Below, piece after piece: positions 9,635-17,915 of a stretch of 56,621 bases of DNA. The position numbers were made by a program, and so were the translations under genes. Position 1 is the first letter of the stretch. Every line of letters begins with the position of its first letter. Under the pieces are notes generated by a model. That model saw nothing but the letters and a program-made list of their open reading frames with translations, made no database searches and was not told where the DNA came from. The stretch is from Candidatus Saccharimonadales bacterium (GTDB taxonomy: Bacteria; Patescibacteriota; Saccharimonadia; Saccharimonadales; JACDFO01), in NCBI GenBank assembly GCA_038255465.1, contig JBBSLJ010000005.1, positions 1 through 56,621 of the forward strand, given 5' to 3'.

Positions 9635-10816
9635 TTATTTATTAATCTTTGTAACGACACCGGCGCCAACAGTACGGCCACCTTCACGAATTGCGAAGCG
9701 AAGACCCTGTTCCATAGCAATAGGTTGCAATAGCTTAACTTTGAAAGTCAAAGTATCGCCTGGCAAAACCATTTCTTTTTCGGCTGGAAGCTCAACTTCA
9801 CCAGTTACGTCAGTTGTACGGAAGTAAAACTGAGGCTTGTAACCTTTAAAGAATGGTGTGTGACGACCACCTTCTTCTTTGGTAAGAATATATACTTCTG
9901 CATCAAATTCAGTGTGCGGAGTTATAGAACCTGGCTTGGCCAAAACTTGGCCACGCTCGATGTCACCGCGTTCAATACCGCGCAACAAAATACCGGCATT
10001 GTCACCAGCTTGACCTTGATCAAGACTTTTTTTGAACATTTCAACGCCTGTAACGACTGACTTCTTAGTGTCACGAACACCAACAATTTCAACTTCTTCG
10101 TTAACCTTGATGATACCCTGCTCGATACGACCGGTAGCTACTGTGCCACGACCTTTAATAGAGAAAACATCTTCGATAGCCATCATGAATGGTTTTTCAA
10201 TTTCTCGCTTTGGTTCAGGAACATAGTCGTCCATAGCCTTAACGAGTTCCATGACTGAATCCATAGCCGCTTCATCGCCTTCGATAGCTTTGGTAGCGGA
10301 ACCCTTGACAATCGGGCAGTTTTCGTCAAATTCGTACTTAGCAAGTAGCTCACGGATGTCCATTTCTACAAGCTCAACAAGCTCAGGATCAGCAAGATCC
10401 ATCTTGTTCATAAAGACAAGAATACTTGGTACGCCCACTTGCTTAGCAAGTAGCACGTGTTCACGCGTTTGCGGCATAGGACCGTCAGCAGCAGAAACAA
10501 CAAGTATTGCACCGTCAATCTGAGCAGCACCGGTAATCATGTTCTTAACGTAGTCAGCGTGACCTGGCATATCAACATGCGCATAGTGACGCTTTTCTGA
10601 TTCGTATTCCTGGTGTGACGTAGCAATGGTGATACCACGGGCTTTTTCTTCAGGTGCCTTGTCAATCTCATCGTATTTGACTGCTTTATTAACGTCGCTT
10701 GGAAGGCGCTTTGAAAGCGTTATCGTGATGGCCGCCGTAAGACTTGTCTTACCGTGGTCAACATGGCCCATCGTGCCTACATTTACATGTGGCTTGCTTC
10801 TGTCAAAATTTGCCAT
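9635..10816 (-). CDS. tuf: elongation factor Tu
   Basis: [49 protein letters not shown]. Confidence 0.99.
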
Positions 10817-11087: not shown

Positions 11088-12779
11088 ATGGAAAAAACAA
11101 GCATTCCTGATCAGTCAAACGAACACGTACATAGATGGCCTGAGGGTGCTATTGTGTACCATATTTACCCTCGAAGTTTTCAAGATAGTAATGACGATGG
11201 TGTCGGCGATCTGGCAGGTGTGACCTCAAGACTTGATTACCTGAAAAGCCTTTCCATTAATGCAGTTTGGCTTTCGCCCTTTTATCCTTCACCTATGGCC
11301 GACTTTGGGTATGACGTGTCTGACTACTGTAATGTGGATCCAATTTTCGGAAATCTTGATGATTTTAAAGAATTACTAAAACAAGCCTCTCTGCGCGATA
11401 TACGGGTTATTATCGACTTAGTTCCTAACCACACGTCTGACGAGCATGAGTGGTTTAGGCAGTCCCGACTGTCGGACAACAACAAATTTAGCGACTGGTA
11501 TATTTGGGTAGACTCATTTAAGTTTAATGAGGATGGCACTCCTCAACCTCCCAACAATTGGCGTGACGCGCTAACGGGCGGTAGCGCCTGGGAGTGGGAT
11601 ACTACTCGCAAGCAGTTTTATTTGCATAGTTTCGATAAAAAGCAGCCGGACTTAAATTGGAGTAACCCTGCTGTTCGTGAAGCCGTAAAAGAGGCGATGC
11701 GTTTTTGGCTCGATCTTGGGGTGGACGGTTTTAGAATCGATGCGGTTTATTGGATGGCAAAAGAACCGTTGTTCATTAATGACTCCCCAAACCCCGATTA
11801 CGTAGATGGCACCGATTTACTTTACGAGGCGCTATTGCACGACAATAGTCGCGGCTGGCCCATGGTTTACGCGTATTTATCAGAAATGGCTGAAGTATTA
11901 AAAGAAAAACAGTTTCAAGACAAGCACCGGTTTATGGTAACTGAAGCCTATCCCGAGCGTCACAATCCCCTTGCTGCATATATGAATTTTTATGTCGGAG
12001 TAGATCCAAAAGTAGCCGCACCCTTTAATTTTGAAGGTTTAAGTTTGCCGTGGGACGCAGCCAGCTGGCGGAGATTTTTAAGTTCTTTCCATCATGCGCT
12101 TGCACGGTTTTCGTCAGATTGTATTCCCAGTTACGCATTCGGTAATCATGACCAGCCGCGGCTAGCGTCACGTATAGGCGAAAAGCCTGCCCGAGCAGCT
12201 GCTACTATGCTGCTTACACTTCCGGGCATGGCATTTATATACTACGGCGAAGAACTTGGAATGAAAAACGTTACTATACCGCCAGGAAAGGTTCATGACC
12301 CGGCCGCAAAAGGTGATCCATCCAAGGGTATAGGGCGTGACCCGGAGCGAACACCTATGCAGTGGAGCGCCGGGCAAAATGCCGGATTCACTACTAGTAG
12401 TAATCCTTGGCTACCATTAGCCGATAATTATAAAGACCATAACGTAGAAACAGAGCTTGCTGATCCTGCCTCATTTTTATCGCTTTATATAAAGCTGTGT
12501 AAACTGCGTAATGAATCCGATGCATTAAAATACGGCAAAATGCATGTGCTCGAGATAGACGAGCCTAAGGTACTCGGCTATAAACGTATAGCCGCTAATG
12601 GTGAAACATATATAATTCTTATAAATTTTTCGGAAGATATAATTACGTTTCATCCTGCCGTGGAGTTGGGTAAACTTATAATTTCAAGCGAACATTCAGA
12701 ACAGAGAGCCGCGGTTCGAGGCGGGGGAATAATGCTCTACCCGTACGAAGCAGTCGTTCTTGGGGCACCGGCAATTTAA
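11088..12779 (+). CDS. GH13 alpha-glucosidase / oligo-1,6-glucosidase family protein
   Basis: YHIYPRSFQDSNDDGVGDL, DLVPNHTSDEH, catalytic FRIDA, VTEAY and GNHDQPR, RDPERTPMQW. Confidence 0.92.
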   Translation: MEKTSIPDQSNEHVHRWPEGAIVYHIYPRSFQDSNDDGVGDLAGVTSRLDYLKSLSINAVWLSPFYPSPMADFGYDVSDYCNVDPIFGNLDDFKELLKQASLRDIRVIIDLVPNHTSDEHEWFRQSRLSDNNKFSDWYIWVDSFKFNEDGTPQPPNNWRDALTGGSAWEWDTTRKQFYLHSFDKKQPDLNWSNPAVREAVKEAMRFWLDLGVDGFRIDAVYWMAKEPLFINDSPNPDYVDGTDLLYEALLHDNSRGWPMVYAYLSEMAEVLKEKQFQDKHRFMVTEAYPERHNPLAAYMNFYVGVDPKVAAPFNFEGLSLPWDAASWRRFLSSFHHALARFSSDCIPSYAFGNHDQPRLASRIGEKPARAAATMLLTLPGMAFIYYGEELGMKNVTIPPGKVHDPAAKGDPSKGIGRDPERTPMQWSAGQNAGFTTSSNPWLPLADNYKDHNVETELADPASFLSLYIKLCKLRNESDALKYGKMHVLEIDEPKVLGYKRIAANGETYIILINFSEDIITFHPAVELGKLIISSEHSEQRAAVRGGGIMLYPYEAVVLGAPAI

Positions 12780-13782
12780 TAAGTTTGAGCAAGTCATCAA
12801 CAGATTGTTGTAAGGTAAATTTATTCGCCGCTGCTTGGCGCTGTTTTTCGCTGATTGGTGACTGTTTGGAAGCATACAGCAATCCGGAAGCCAGTGTTTG
12901 CGGATTATCTGCTTTTGTAAGAACGAGACCACCGCAGTTTGTTTCAGAAAGCCCTCCCGACCTTGAAGCAACTACCCGGCAGCCTGCATGCTGAGCTTCA
13001 ACAGATATCATGCCGAACATTTCTTGCCAGTATATAGCCGTAGACGGCATGACAACACAATCATTTTCGGCCATTAACGCAGCCATTTCTGTAGCATTCT
13101 TGCGTGCTTCTACAACTGTTATTTGCGGATGGGCCTCTAGTAACTTTAGAACTATTTTACCTTCTTTTGTATGACTGCCAGCTTTTGTTGCTGTTATTTC
13201 AATATTCATATTGTTAATGGTTTCCATGTGCAGGGCAGCAAGCAAAGTATAAATACCTTTGTCGGGCGTTAATCGGCCGGCAAATAATACACGAAAAGTG
13301 TTTGAGCGGGCTGATTTTCTGTGTGCTTTTAAAAACTGTGGATCCGCAAACGGATAAATAGTTGGAATTCGTTTTGTAGATAGTCCCAAGTAGTCACGCC
13401 ATAGTTTTGATGCGAACTTGCTTGTAGCAATTAAATGCTTAGTTCTCATAGCCGAAATATCATACAGTGGATCATTGTGAGACAGTTCCGGCGGCGGACA
13501 ATGAAGAATTGTGTAGGCAGGCCGCTTTGTCTTAACATGTAATGGGTAGGTTACGAAAATGAGCGTATCATCAAGCTCACTCAACTCTTCTTTATTGTTT
13601 AGTGCGATGAATGGAATATCCGGGAAACCGGCGCGTCCATCATCCTTAGGATGCCCGAGCGTAATTATTCGTGCAGGGATCCCACGCCTAGTCAATTCCC
13701 GCACTTGTCCGGCAGTATATGTTTCAGAACCACCTGCTCCCGCATAAAATGGATATTTCGAGGACCACACAAATGAAATCAA
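12676..13782 (-). CDS. glycosyltransferase family 4 (GT-B fold)
   Basis: GGSETY, LFAGRLTPDKG, EMFGMISVEAQHAGCRVVASRSGGLSE; TTG start. Confidence 0.85.
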   Translation of the reverse strand: MISFVWSSKYPFYAGAGGSETYTAGQVRELTRRGIPARIITLGHPKDDGRAGFPDIPFIALNNKEELSELDDTLIFVTYPLHVKTKRPAYTILHCPPPELSHNDPLYDISAMRTKHLIATSKFASKLWRDYLGLSTKRIPTIYPFADPQFLKAHRKSARSNTFRVLFAGRLTPDKGIYTLLAALHMETINNMNIEITATKAGSHTKEGKIVLKLLEAHPQITVVEARKNATEMAALMAENDCVVMPSTAIYWQEMFGMISVEAQHAGCRVVASRSGGLSETNCGGLVLTKADNPQTLASGLLYASKQSPISEKQRQAAANKFTLQQSVDDLLKLIKLPVPQERLLRTGRALFPRLEPRLSVLNVRLKL

Positions 13783-13888: not shown

Positions 13889-14482
13889 TTAGGCTTGTTG
13901 TTGCTGTTGAATTGTTTGGCACAGGGCATCAAGTGATACTTGGCGGCCCTGCCGGAAAGCATCGACTGCAAATTCCGTAAGCAAACGAAAGTCAGGCTTG
14001 CTTAAACCGTATTTGGCAGCGTATGCTGCATAATTTTCAATTTCCCGTGCTCTGCCTACCACATCTGACATTGGGGCGATGGTATCTGTGTATGCTCGCA
14101 TACGGCCATATGGTTTTGGTTCTACTACTCCGTGGTGAATATGAAGCATTTGATCACCTTCATCTTTGCTCATATATAGTTCAGTATCAGTTAATGACAC
14201 GGCAGTTACTTGACGGGCAAGTTCAATTTGTTCATCAGTTGCATTAAAGGTAGTGTTCTGGTCAAGAATCAATGTGTACGCAGCCCGTTGACTTGCCTGA
14301 GGTAATACATAAAAGCCCCAGCAATCATCGTAAGTGATCGGCTCTTTGAATGACTGCTTACCCCATTTATAGGAATATAAATCCAATAGTGAACTTGTAT
14401 CATACACTTCGTCATATATTAATCCGTGTCTGCCACCGGTCCTATCAGTACCATACTCATTGGGAGAAATCAGCCACGGCAT
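13889..14482 (-). CDS. hypothetical protein (197 aa)
   Basis: Long ORF directly after fusA; no family recognised; start uncertain. Confidence 0.6.
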   Translation of the reverse strand: MPWLISPNEYGTDRTGGRHGLIYDEVYDTSSLLDLYSYKWGKQSFKEPITYDDCWGFYVLPQASQRAAYTLILDQNTTFNATDEQIELARQVTAVSLTDTELYMSKDEGDQMLHIHHGVVEPKPYGRMRAYTDTIAPMSDVVGRAREIENYAAYAAKYGLSKPDFRLLTEFAVDAFRQGRQVSLDALCQTIQQQQQA

Positions 14483-14561: not shown

Positions 14562-16649
14562 TTACTTACTGGTTTTAGCGGCAATTGCTTCGGCAACGTT
14601 ATTTGGCACGTCGGAATAGTGGGCTAGTTCCATGCTTGAGCTGGCACGTCCCTGCGTCATTGAACGAAGGTTAGTGGTATACCCGAACATTTCACCTAGT
14701 GGTACAAAAGCGGTAATTTCTTTGATGCCGCTTGAGAGGTCTTCCATGGATTCAATGCGACCGCGCTTAGAGTTTAAATCGCCGATAACATCACCCATGA
14801 AGTCTTCTGGTGTAACCACCACAACTTTCATGACAGGCTCGAGCAACACAGGTGCCGCTTGCCTCATTGCCTCTTTAAAACCGATAGAACCGGCAGCTTT
14901 GAAGGCCATTTCTGATGAGTCAACGTCGTGATAAGACCCGTCATATAGTTCAACCTTAACATCAACTACAGGGTAACCGGCCACGACACCGTTGTTCATG
15001 GCTTCGATAATACCCTGTTGGACTGGCTTGATGTATTCACCAGGAACAGTACCACCTTTGATAGCGTTAATGAACTCAAATCCCTTCCCTTGTTCATTCT
15101 GGGAAATACGAAGCCATACGTCACCGTATTGGCCGCGACCACCCGATTGGCGGATAAACTTGCCTTGGGCTTCGACGCCGTCCTTACGGACCGTCTCGCG
15201 GTAAGCAACTTGCGGCTGGCCAATATTAGCTTCAACGCTAAATTCTCGTTTCATACGGTCTACGAGAATTTCAAGATGTAATTCACCCATACCATTGAGC
15301 ACTGTCTGTCCAGTTTCATCATCAACTCTAATACGGAATGTAGGATCTTCTTCTGCCAAACGTTGCAGAGCCAAGCTCATTTTTTCTTGGTCAGACTTGG
15401 TTTTTGGTTCAATTGCAATTGATACAGGAGGATCAGGAAAATCGATACTTTCGAGAGTAATCGGATGAGCAGGATCGCAAAGCGTATGCCCTGTCGTTGT
15501 AGCTTTTAGGCCAACAACCGCCGCAATATCACCAGCACTTACTTCGTTCACATCTTCACGTTTATCGGCTTGCATACGAACAATACGACCGATACGTTCT
15601 TTTTCACCATTAGAGCTGTTGAGAATATACGAACCAGCCGTAAGCTTGCCTGAATACACCCGGAAATACGCCAGTTTACCCACGAATGGGTCGGACGTAA
15701 TCTTAAAAGCCAGTCCTGCCATAGGCTCGGTCTCTGTAACCTTACGCTCTACTTTGTCGCCGGTTTTAGGATGAATACCCCAGGTTGAACCGCGGTCTTC
15801 TGGACTTGGCAAAATATCAACAACCATGTCGAGAACTTTCTCAACAATCACACCGCGGCCGTCTCCACCAGTAACCGGGAAGAAGTCACCAGATAGGGTA
15901 GCAGTTCGGATAGCCTGATTGATTTCGTCTTCTGATAATCCGTCTTCGCCGACTTCAAAATATTTTTCGAGCATTGCTTCGTCTTCAGCTACGGCATTTT
16001 CAATCAGCAGTGAGCGATATTTTTTGACCTTATCCATCATATCGGCCGGAATCTCGGCTAAGACAAGCTCTTTGTCGGTGAAATCTTTATACGTATATGC
16101 TTTCATGCCGACAAGGTCAACGATACCGTTTATGGATTGCTCGAAGCCGATAGGAAGATGAATCGGGAAAGCACGCTTGCTCAATCGGTTATGTATAGAA
16201 TCGAGCGATTTATAAAAATCGCCGCCAGTTTGGTTGATCTTATTAATAAAGCAAACACGTGGTACGCCGTATTTGGTTGCTTGACGCCAAACAGTTTCAC
16301 TCTGTGATTCAACACCCATCTTGCCATCAAAGACAACACAGGCACCGTCAAGTACACGAAGCGAACGCTCCACCTCAACCGTAAAGTCGATGTGTCCTGG
16401 TGTATCAATAATGTTAATCTGGTGATCTTTCCAGTAACAGGTAACAGCAGCAGAAACAATGGTAATACCGCGCTCGCGCTCTTGGGCCATCCAATCTGTG
16501 GTGGTCCCGCCTTCATGAACGGCGCCAATTTTATGCTTTAAGCCTGTGCGATACAAAATACCTTCGGTGGTAGTGGTTTTGCCAGCGTCGATATGGGCAA
16601 TAATTCCCATATTTCTGATTTTGTTTAATGCATATTTCTTAGCTGCCAT
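14562..16649 (-). CDS. fusA: elongation factor G
   Basis: AHIDAGKTT, RERGITI, DTPGHIDF, GMGELHLEI, RQSGGRGQYG, LRSMTQGRA. Confidence 0.99.
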   Translation of the reverse strand: MAAKKYALNKIRNMGIIAHIDAGKTTTTEGILYRTGLKHKIGAVHEGGTTTDWMAQERERGITIVSAAVTCYWKDHQINIIDTPGHIDFTVEVERSLRVLDGACVVFDGKMGVESQSETVWRQATKYGVPRVCFINKINQTGGDFYKSLDSIHNRLSKRAFPIHLPIGFEQSINGIVDLVGMKAYTYKDFTDKELVLAEIPADMMDKVKKYRSLLIENAVAEDEAMLEKYFEVGEDGLSEDEINQAIRTATLSGDFFPVTGGDGRGVIVEKVLDMVVDILPSPEDRGSTWGIHPKTGDKVERKVTETEPMAGLAFKITSDPFVGKLAYFRVYSGKLTAGSYILNSSNGEKERIGRIVRMQADKREDVNEVSAGDIAAVVGLKATTTGHTLCDPAHPITLESIDFPDPPVSIAIEPKTKSDQEKMSLALQRLAEEDPTFRIRVDDETGQTVLNGMGELHLEILVDRMKREFSVEANIGQPQVAYRETVRKDGVEAQGKFIRQSGGRGQYGDVWLRISQNEQGKGFEFINAIKGGTVPGEYIKPVQQGIIEAMNNGVVAGYPVVDVKVELYDGSYHDVDSSEMAFKAAGSIGFKEAMRQAAPVLLEPVMKVVVVTPEDFMGDVIGDLNSKRGRIESMEDLSSGIKEITAFVPLGEMFGYTTNLRSMTQGRASSSMELAHYSDVPNNVAEAIAAKTSK

Positions 16650-16669: not shown

Positions 16670-17020
16670 TTACGTATTATCCGGCTCAGTAGTTTCTATT
16701 GGAGCTACAACTGCATCACAGTACGTACGATTATGTCTTGTAAACAATCGTACAAATGAGCTTTTGGGGTTGTTGCATGAGTAAGCTAGCGTGTAATCAC
16801 CAGAAGCTAAGCGTTCAGCTTTGTCACCGTAATCATCAGATGCCCCAGCTACATTGGTGGCATTCATTACAGTTAGTCTTGTAATCAGTGATATGTCACC
16901 ACTTACTGCTCGTTCAGACTCTTCACGCGCTAAGGCTCTGGCAAGCGTTGCTATGGGGCAATCTTCGCAGGGTTTAGCCGGGTTGCCATGTTCATTAACA
17001 GCGTGACGAGACTCAAACAT
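16670..17020 (-). CDS. Cys-motif hypothetical protein inserted between rpsG and fusA
   Basis: 116 aa; ATG directly follows the rpsG stop (TAGATG); CEDC...CNNP...C. Confidence 0.7.
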   Translation of the reverse strand: MFESRHAVNEHGNPAKPCEDCPIATLARALAREESERAVSGDISLITRLTVMNATNVAGASDDYGDKAERLASGDYTLAYSCNNPKSSFVRLFTRHNRTYCDAVVAPIETTEPDNT

Positions 17021-17500
17021 CTAATATCTTGCGAAGTGAGCGAATGCTCGGTTAGCTTCGGCCATTTTATGGGTGTCTTCTTTTTTCTTAACTGCACTAC
17101 CAGTGCTGTTATATGCATCTACAAGCTCTAGTGCAATCCGGTCTTCCATGCTCATGCCCTTACGAGCCCTGGCTGCTTGTACAAACCACATAATGGTCAA
17201 GTGATTTTGTCGCTGGCCTTTAACTTCAAAAGGAATCTGGTAGTTTGCACCACCAACGCGGCGTGAGCGTGTTTCCATGTGCGGCTTGACGTTTGCGATT
17301 GCCTGCTCAAAAACTTCTAACGGATTTTGAACTTTAACCTTATCGGCTGCTTTTTGCATGCCGTTATAGACTAAACGTTCTGCAACCTGCTTTTTGCCGT
17401 TAAGCATAACGCGGTTAATAACCTTGGTGACCATAGGGTTGTTGTACAGCCTGTCGGGTTGGACAGGACGGACAAGTGATTTAGTGACTTTACGCGGCAT
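17021..17500 (-). CDS. rpsG: 30S ribosomal protein S7
   Basis: MPRK...INRVMLNGKKQVAE...RRVGGANYQIP...HKMAEANRAFAH. Confidence 0.98.
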   Translation of the reverse strand: MPRKVTKSLVRPVQPDRLYNNPMVTKVINRVMLNGKKQVAERLVYNGMQKAADKVKVQNPLEVFEQAIANVKPHMETRSRRVGGANYQIPFEVKGQRQNHLTIMWFVQAARARKGMSMEDRIALELVDAYNSTGSAVKKKEDTHKMAEANRAFAHFARY

Positions 17501-17501
17501 C

Positions 17502-17915
17502 TTACTTGCTCTCCTTCTTGGTGCCGTACTTGCTTCGGCCTTGCTTACGGTTGCTTACACCTTGAAGATCAAGCGTACCGCGAACAATGTGATAACGCAC
17601 ACCAGGCAAGTCCTTAACACGTCCACCACGAACCATGACAACCGCGTGTTCCTGCAAGTTATGGCCTTCGCCGCCAATGTAAGCCCACACCTCATAGCCG
17701 TTATTAAGCCGCACACGTGCAACCTTACGGAGCGCTGAATTAGGCTTTTTAGGAGTTTTGGTAGTTACCTTAACGCAAACACCGCGCTTAAACGGCGCTG
17801 CCTTTTCGTAGTTGGTTGTCTTGAGCGTATTTACTACACGCTGCAAGGCTGGGGACTTGGATTTTTCCTTTTTAATAGTACGCGGTTTGCGCACTAACTG
17901 ATTGATTGTTGGCAT
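17502..17915 (-). CDS. rpsL: 30S ribosomal protein S12
   Basis: [10 protein letters not shown]...[17 protein letters not shown]...[12 protein letters not shown]. Confidence 0.99.

Follow-up and report, generated by a model that had tools for sequence, protein, structure and literature searches.

The window analyzed in this work is a stretch of 56,621 nucleotides from a contig of a Candidatus Saccharimonadales bacterium (Patescibacteria), which has Saccharibacteria as its close relatives. On its reverse strand, positions 14562–16649 carry fusA, encoding an elongation factor G (EF-G) of 695 amino acids. In a profile scan the product matched the EF-G model TIGR00484 over its full length with 1002.6 bits (cut-off 659.4), scored below the cut-offs of the EF-G2 models and reached 830 bits with PDB chains of canonical bacterial EF-G. 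The gene is part of an rpsL-rpsG-fusA-tuf-rpsJ region, in which rpsG and rpsL (17021–17915, reverse strand; named from their translations and not by a family scan) mark the canonical str-operon position. This position and the order rpsL-rpsG-fusA-tuf are those of a housekeeping EF-G. Two ORFs of 197 and 116 amino acids flank fusA (13889–14482 and 16670–17020, both reverse strand) and have no match in Pfam or NCBIfam. Between fusA and tuf lie a gene of the GH13 alpha-amylase family (11088–12779, forward strand) and one encoding a GT4 glycosyltransferase (12676–13782, reverse strand), which overlap tail-to-tail by about 100 bases.

The first-pass annotation had allowed for another canonical fusA doing the job. 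Searches of the genome (95.7% complete) with tblastn and phmmer did not detect a second fusA. They retrieved just EF-Tu and three more translational GTPases, which by their motifs are IF2-, LepA- and BipA-like. All four of these proteins keep NKxD. The EF-Tu gene (tuf, 9635–10816, reverse strand) retains the canonical NKMD and GSA motifs, as the annotation had read them, and served as an internal control. Likewise, G1–G3 of the EF-G proved as normal as described: the P-loop (G1, 16572–16598), G2/switch I with RGITI (16458–16481) and G3 with DTPGH and the catalytic His (16392–16406, all reverse strand) are intact. A ligand-free AlphaFold model of EF-G domains I–II had a pLDDT of 88 and a TM-score of about 0.9 to solved EF-G; it adopts the ordinary EF-G fold, with a block-mean pLDDT above 90 over G4 and G5.

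The deviations are located in the base pocket. G4 reads NKIN (amino acids 136–139) at exactly the annotated positions 16233–16244 (reverse strand; FINKINQTGG as a whole, 16221–16250), with Asn139 (16233–16235) in place of the guanine-reading Asp. The G5 loop, annotated at about 15850–15875, has indeed been rewritten to TGGDGRGV (amino acids 260–267; 15849–15872, reverse strand) and lacks one residue relative to the canonical loop. Its Asp263 (15861–15863, reverse strand) aligns with the G5 Ser, immediately behind strand 6, which ends at the same place in the AlphaFold model, and Arg265 (15855–15857, reverse strand) stands two residues further on. As the canonical EF-G pattern is G4 NKxD with G5 gSAx, the protein with NKIN and GGDGR was classed as a variant EF-G.

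The phylum-wide alignment which the annotation had proposed comprised 102 EF-Gs and revealed a complete coupling of these residues. All 74 sequences with Asn in G4 carry Asp in the G5 Ser column and also Arg265, all 28 with Asp in G4 carry Ser, Thr or Ala in that column, and intermediates were absent. Two further sites co-vary with the pocket: position 30 in helix 1 (Gly30, 16560–16562, reverse strand), which is Arg in 28/28 canonical sequences and Gly in 49/74 variants, and Lys110-Met111, located where strand 4 runs out into a loop (16317–16322, reverse strand), with Lys or Arg110 in 74/74 variants and Met111 in 69/74 variants vs. 0/28 canonical sequences. The G5 Ala column is occupied by Gly, Ser, Phe, Tyr, Asn or Ala in the variants, and the 30 most discriminating alignment columns all fall within residues 30–270. 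In the fetched loci, some of which are redundant, the codons vary only synonymously (Asn: 149 AAC, 43 AAT; Asp: 132 GAT, 60 GAC). Since the motif pair was present in 30 of the 30 best-matching loci from the order and in 80/80 loci of a contig search seeded with this motif, the variant is neither a chance event nor a sequencing error.

When 301 genomes of the phylum were scanned with a DNA pattern of the variant G4, 108 matched, as against eight for the reversed control pattern. After correction for one match away from fusA (G062) and one missed variant (G258), at least 108 of the 291 sampled Patescibacteria genomes with a fusA G domain carry the variant. These tallies include one unpublished genome (G193), which adds one to each count and whose sequence is absent from the alignments. 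Several of the sampled families are fixed for the variant and others are mixed; even within the Saccharimonadales, four genomes have the canonical block. Genomes harboring both alleles were sought and rejected as a candidate, the second matches being canonical in G021 and G242 and BipA-like in G003. Carriage by phages was rejected, as viral contigs contained no relative. Regarding an origin outside the phylum, only four of the best 150 representatives of a library clustered at 50% identity had Asn in G4, all of them with NKINQTGG; this library is without taxonomy, variants may hide inside its clusters, and it says nothing on absence elsewhere. Literature searches yielded nothing on this EF-G variant. 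It is a real and conserved variant of an essential factor, and apparently unpublished.

Comparison of the different parts of fusA revealed a mosaic gene. In a tree of the G domain without the motif columns there was a single change between the two types, in contrast to 14 in the tree of domains II–V. A tree of residues 410–690 (44 rows) had 12 label changes, no fewer than with shuffled labels, and at least eight of the 12 were forced by well-supported branches; holding the variants together in this quick tree was rejected only marginally (AU p 0.048). Between two genomes of one genus, identity was 87–92% for residues 8–120, dropped to 40–55% for residues 121–300 and rose to 93–100% for residues 421–690. 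The breakpoints in six pairs clustered near residues 125–130 and 290–310. The trees, the within-genus identity profile and the clustered breakpoints all indicate that a block of about 180 residues with G4, the G' subdomain and G5 has been exchanged many times within fusA, even within one genus. In the present gene this block spans approximately amino acids 128–308 (15726–16268, reverse strand), and identity of the two types in its G' part amounts to only about 40%. Both block types evidently work in near-identical cells. As the exchanged block has a single origin, the perfect coupling of Asn139 and Asp263 shows joint conservation and not many independent co-changes.

EF-Tu provided a parallel. 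In 12 EF-Tu loci of the Dojkabacteria (f63) the G4 Asp is lost, and the G5 Ser column is occupied by Asp (six), Asn (four) or Ser (two). The EF-Tus of the families f138 and f112 have lost the G4 Asp as well and kept the G5 Ser. G4 of these proteins reads N-[K/T/D/V]-F-[G/P] in f63 and f138 (L221–L234) and N-R-F-K in genome G156 (f112; L245/L251). A looser EF-Tu pattern gave matches at chance level and was discarded. Dojkabacteria EF-Tu resembles the variant EF-G in its independent loss of the G4 Asp, in Asp, Asn or Ser at the G5 Ser column and in Gly at position 30 of helix 1, whereas it differs in its G4, N-[KTD]-F-[GP], and in a G5 without deletion. Losses accompanied by Asn or Ser go against Asp being an obligatory replacement, though this concerns EF-Tu and not EF-G. 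G156 combines an altered EF-Tu with a canonical EF-G; the changes in the two factors are thus not tied, and the loss in G156 looks like a separate event. IF2 and LepA keep [NTS]KxD in five genomes with altered EF-Tu and in the present genome. As far as the factors were checked, change is confined to the two which act in every elongation cycle.

In Ras and EF-Tu geometry, the G4 Asp accepts hydrogen bonds from N1-H and N2-H of guanine and from the hydroxyl group of the G5 Ser, and backbone NH groups of G5 bind O6. The literature likewise describes a reading of guanine N1/N2 by the G4 Asp and a binding of O6 by the NH of the G5 Ala (PMC11594714, PMC8959515). In Ypt1 the exchange of Asp for Asn alone stops binding of both GDP and GTP (PMC2120555); an essential factor with this substitution consequently needs either compensation or another fuel. 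The annotation had postulated an altered or relaxed nucleotide recognition, of which the change itself is real, selected and located in the only fusA found; that recognition is altered or relaxed is the reading which we favor. On balance, we tend to the view that the variant EF-G accepts ATP and would hydrolyze it on the ribosome, either in preference to GTP or in addition to it. An actual preference for ATP is a more tentative proposal. A similar reserve applies to the broader scenario, in which a large share of the Patescibacteria would translocate mainly with ATP by means of a transferable block and the Dojkabacteria would no longer run either elongation factor on GTP. Our literature searches brought up no natural translocase driven by ATP in this way.

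According to the proposed mechanism, the parts of this housekeeping EF-G which handle phosphate and carry out translocation are normal, whereas its base pocket would take up adenine. Given little movement, the amide of Asn139 could donate hydrogen bonds to Asp263 and to the base acceptor N1, while Asp263 would accept one from the 6-amino group; donating to N1 while accepting from position 6 corresponds to the adenine pattern. The Gly-rich, shortened G5 loop would remove the contacts to O6, and Arg265 may stack on the base. A speculative benefit would be a lower demand on a scarce, scavenged guanine nucleotide pool. Our leaning to ATP is based on the precedent of SpoIVA, the EF-Tu losses in Dojkabacteria, f138 and f112, and the canonical IF2 and LepA. 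Further points in its favor are the loss of nucleotide binding in Ypt1 with Asn alone, the variety of residues at the G5 Ala column whose NH binds O6, the use of ATP by FeoB and YchF after changes in G4/G5, and the lower frequency of guanylate kinase matches among the variants described below. Against ATP it can be held that the other ATP determinants of SpoIVA (loss of Lys, an acidic residue) are not seen here, that guanine is most often read by a carboxylate also where NKxD is lacking, and that GTP can be regenerated by NDK, which is present in this genome and in 267 of 301 genomes. The same distribution led us to reject a loss of NDK as the driver of the change. In many genomes of the phylum NDK appears as two partial Pfam matches within one frame of about 200 amino acids, which suggests an inserted or divergent form of the enzyme.

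A Pfam guanylate kinase match was present in 26 of 108 variant vs. 85 of 183 other genomes (odds ratio 0.37), with a nominal p of 2e-4 that is overstated by kinship. In family f56 none of five variant genomes but all four with the canonical block had such a match, including a within-genus contrast; these matches are divergent and do not reach the cut-off of NCBIfam. On the other hand, 12 of 17 Saccharimonadia variants kept the match (the present genome has none), over half of the non-variant genomes are without it, and other close contrasts were neutral or opposite. With kin that are not independent, the rarity of gmk among variants is at best a weak link to the fuel. Overall, about 60% of the sampled Patescibacteria genomes have no Pfam guanylate kinase match. 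One variant genome carries a guanylate kinase-like gene between fusA and tuf (L252, G109:C1:144013-144579). In the present genome, a GMP synthase C-terminal match (C8:17118-17387) lies in a frame of 670 amino acids that follows immediately downstream of the BipA-like gene; it was not found in the four other genomes tested. A loss of EF-Ts was rejected, the factor being present in 5/5 genomes, and so was a link to RelA/SpoT, for which four of five genomes of either type gave no match.

The main alternative, credible though doubtful, is an EF-G that is still GTP-specific, in which the shortened loop shifts Asp263 so that it reads N1-H and N2-H of guanine, while Asn139 keeps the hydrogen bond between G4 and G5 with reversed polarity. 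The annotation had offered a similar compensation for the lost G4 Asp. Asp263 is invariant and never apart from Asn139, the block and its canonical counterpart can replace each other among close relatives, an Asp or Glu outside NKxD is used in 20.5% of guanine complexes, and this genome has NDK and canonical EF-Tu, IF2 and LepA. IFT22 reads guanine through a G5 Asp. However, a carboxylate in the Ser column would sit at the O6 edge and should disfavor guanine unless the loop shifts. Moreover, this reading does not explain why EF-Tus have lost the G4 Asp while carrying Ser or Asn in this column, or why a functionally equal block would be exchanged so frequently. While the coupling in 74/74 sequences agrees with compensation, the losses in EF-Tu go against an obligatory Asp there, and we rank compensation below ATP.

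Improbable in our opinion is an EF-G which is still fuelled by GTP but binds it weakly or with fast exchange, and whose block is favored for escaping an inhibitor, with (p)ppGpp, GDP, antibiotics and toxins as examples, or for altering activation by L7/L12 through the divergent G'. EF-G needs no exchange factor, which speaks against altered kinetics, no inhibitor came to light, and four of five genomes of either type gave no RelA/SpoT match, as mentioned. In its favor, the block includes G', the repeated swaps suggest fluctuating selection, and G4/G5 mutations speed up exchange in Ras (PMC8295990). Specificity for XTP or ITP, an analogy drawn by the annotation from the engineered EF-Tu D138N and matched by Ras and Ypt1, in which the exchange of Asp for Asn confers xanthine specificity, is very improbable, as xanthine and hypoxanthine keep the O6 which the new carboxylate should repel, a Ham1/ITPase-like gene occurs in 5/5 genomes tested and the within-genus swaps would require that a dedicated XTP pool repeatedly appears and disappears.

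EF-G serves as the textbook example of a translational GTPase. With a conserved alternative pocket in more than a third of the sampled genomes of the phylum, it can be tested whether translocation depends on guanine or works with any NTP. The near-identical natural pairs of genus g87, which differ mainly in the block, are ready-made controls. If the EF-G uses ATP, energy models of host-dependent cells would have to be revised and an orthogonal factor for cell-free translation would be available; if it is still GTP-specific, it would represent a new way of reading guanine. The mosaic fusA is a poor phylogenetic marker in Patescibacteria.

Compared with canonical EF-G (FusA, EFG I; S. aureus 2XEX, T. 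thermophilus 1DAR), the variant has the same length, operon position, G1–G3 and domains II–V, and differs in Asn for the G4 Asp, Asp for the G5 Ser and the rewritten, shorter loop. Even EF-G paralogues keep NKxD, and those of the EFG II type also retain gSAx (PMC3150367). The engineered XTPases (Ypt1 D124N, Ras D119N, EF-Tu D138N) bear the same G4 substitution, but they are laboratory mutants with an unchanged G5, which is rewritten in 74/74 variants. GTPase folds that use ATP through changes in G4/G5 are known from YchF/OLA1 and the NTP-promiscuous FeoB (PMC8959515, PMC11406355). YchF is ribosome-stimulated, but has N-x-x-E and is not a translocase; FeoB of V. cholerae, likewise no translocase, keeps its G4 Asp in a turned-away position. 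A precedent is SpoIVA, a tested natural ATPase derived from a TRAFAC GTPase, in which the G4 Asp is replaced by Lys, His, Asn or Arg, the G5 Ser column is "usually N, D, or S" and an acidic residue at the second position after the Ser was found to account in part for the preference for ATP (PMC7952092). The variant EF-G shares with it the absence of the G4 Asp and a residue of the Asn/Asp/Ser type in the G5 Ser column, whereas SpoIVA belongs to a different family with a different job, has lost the G4 Lys and is often acidic at the second position after the Ser; the variant EF-G keeps Lys137 and carries Arg265 at that second position.
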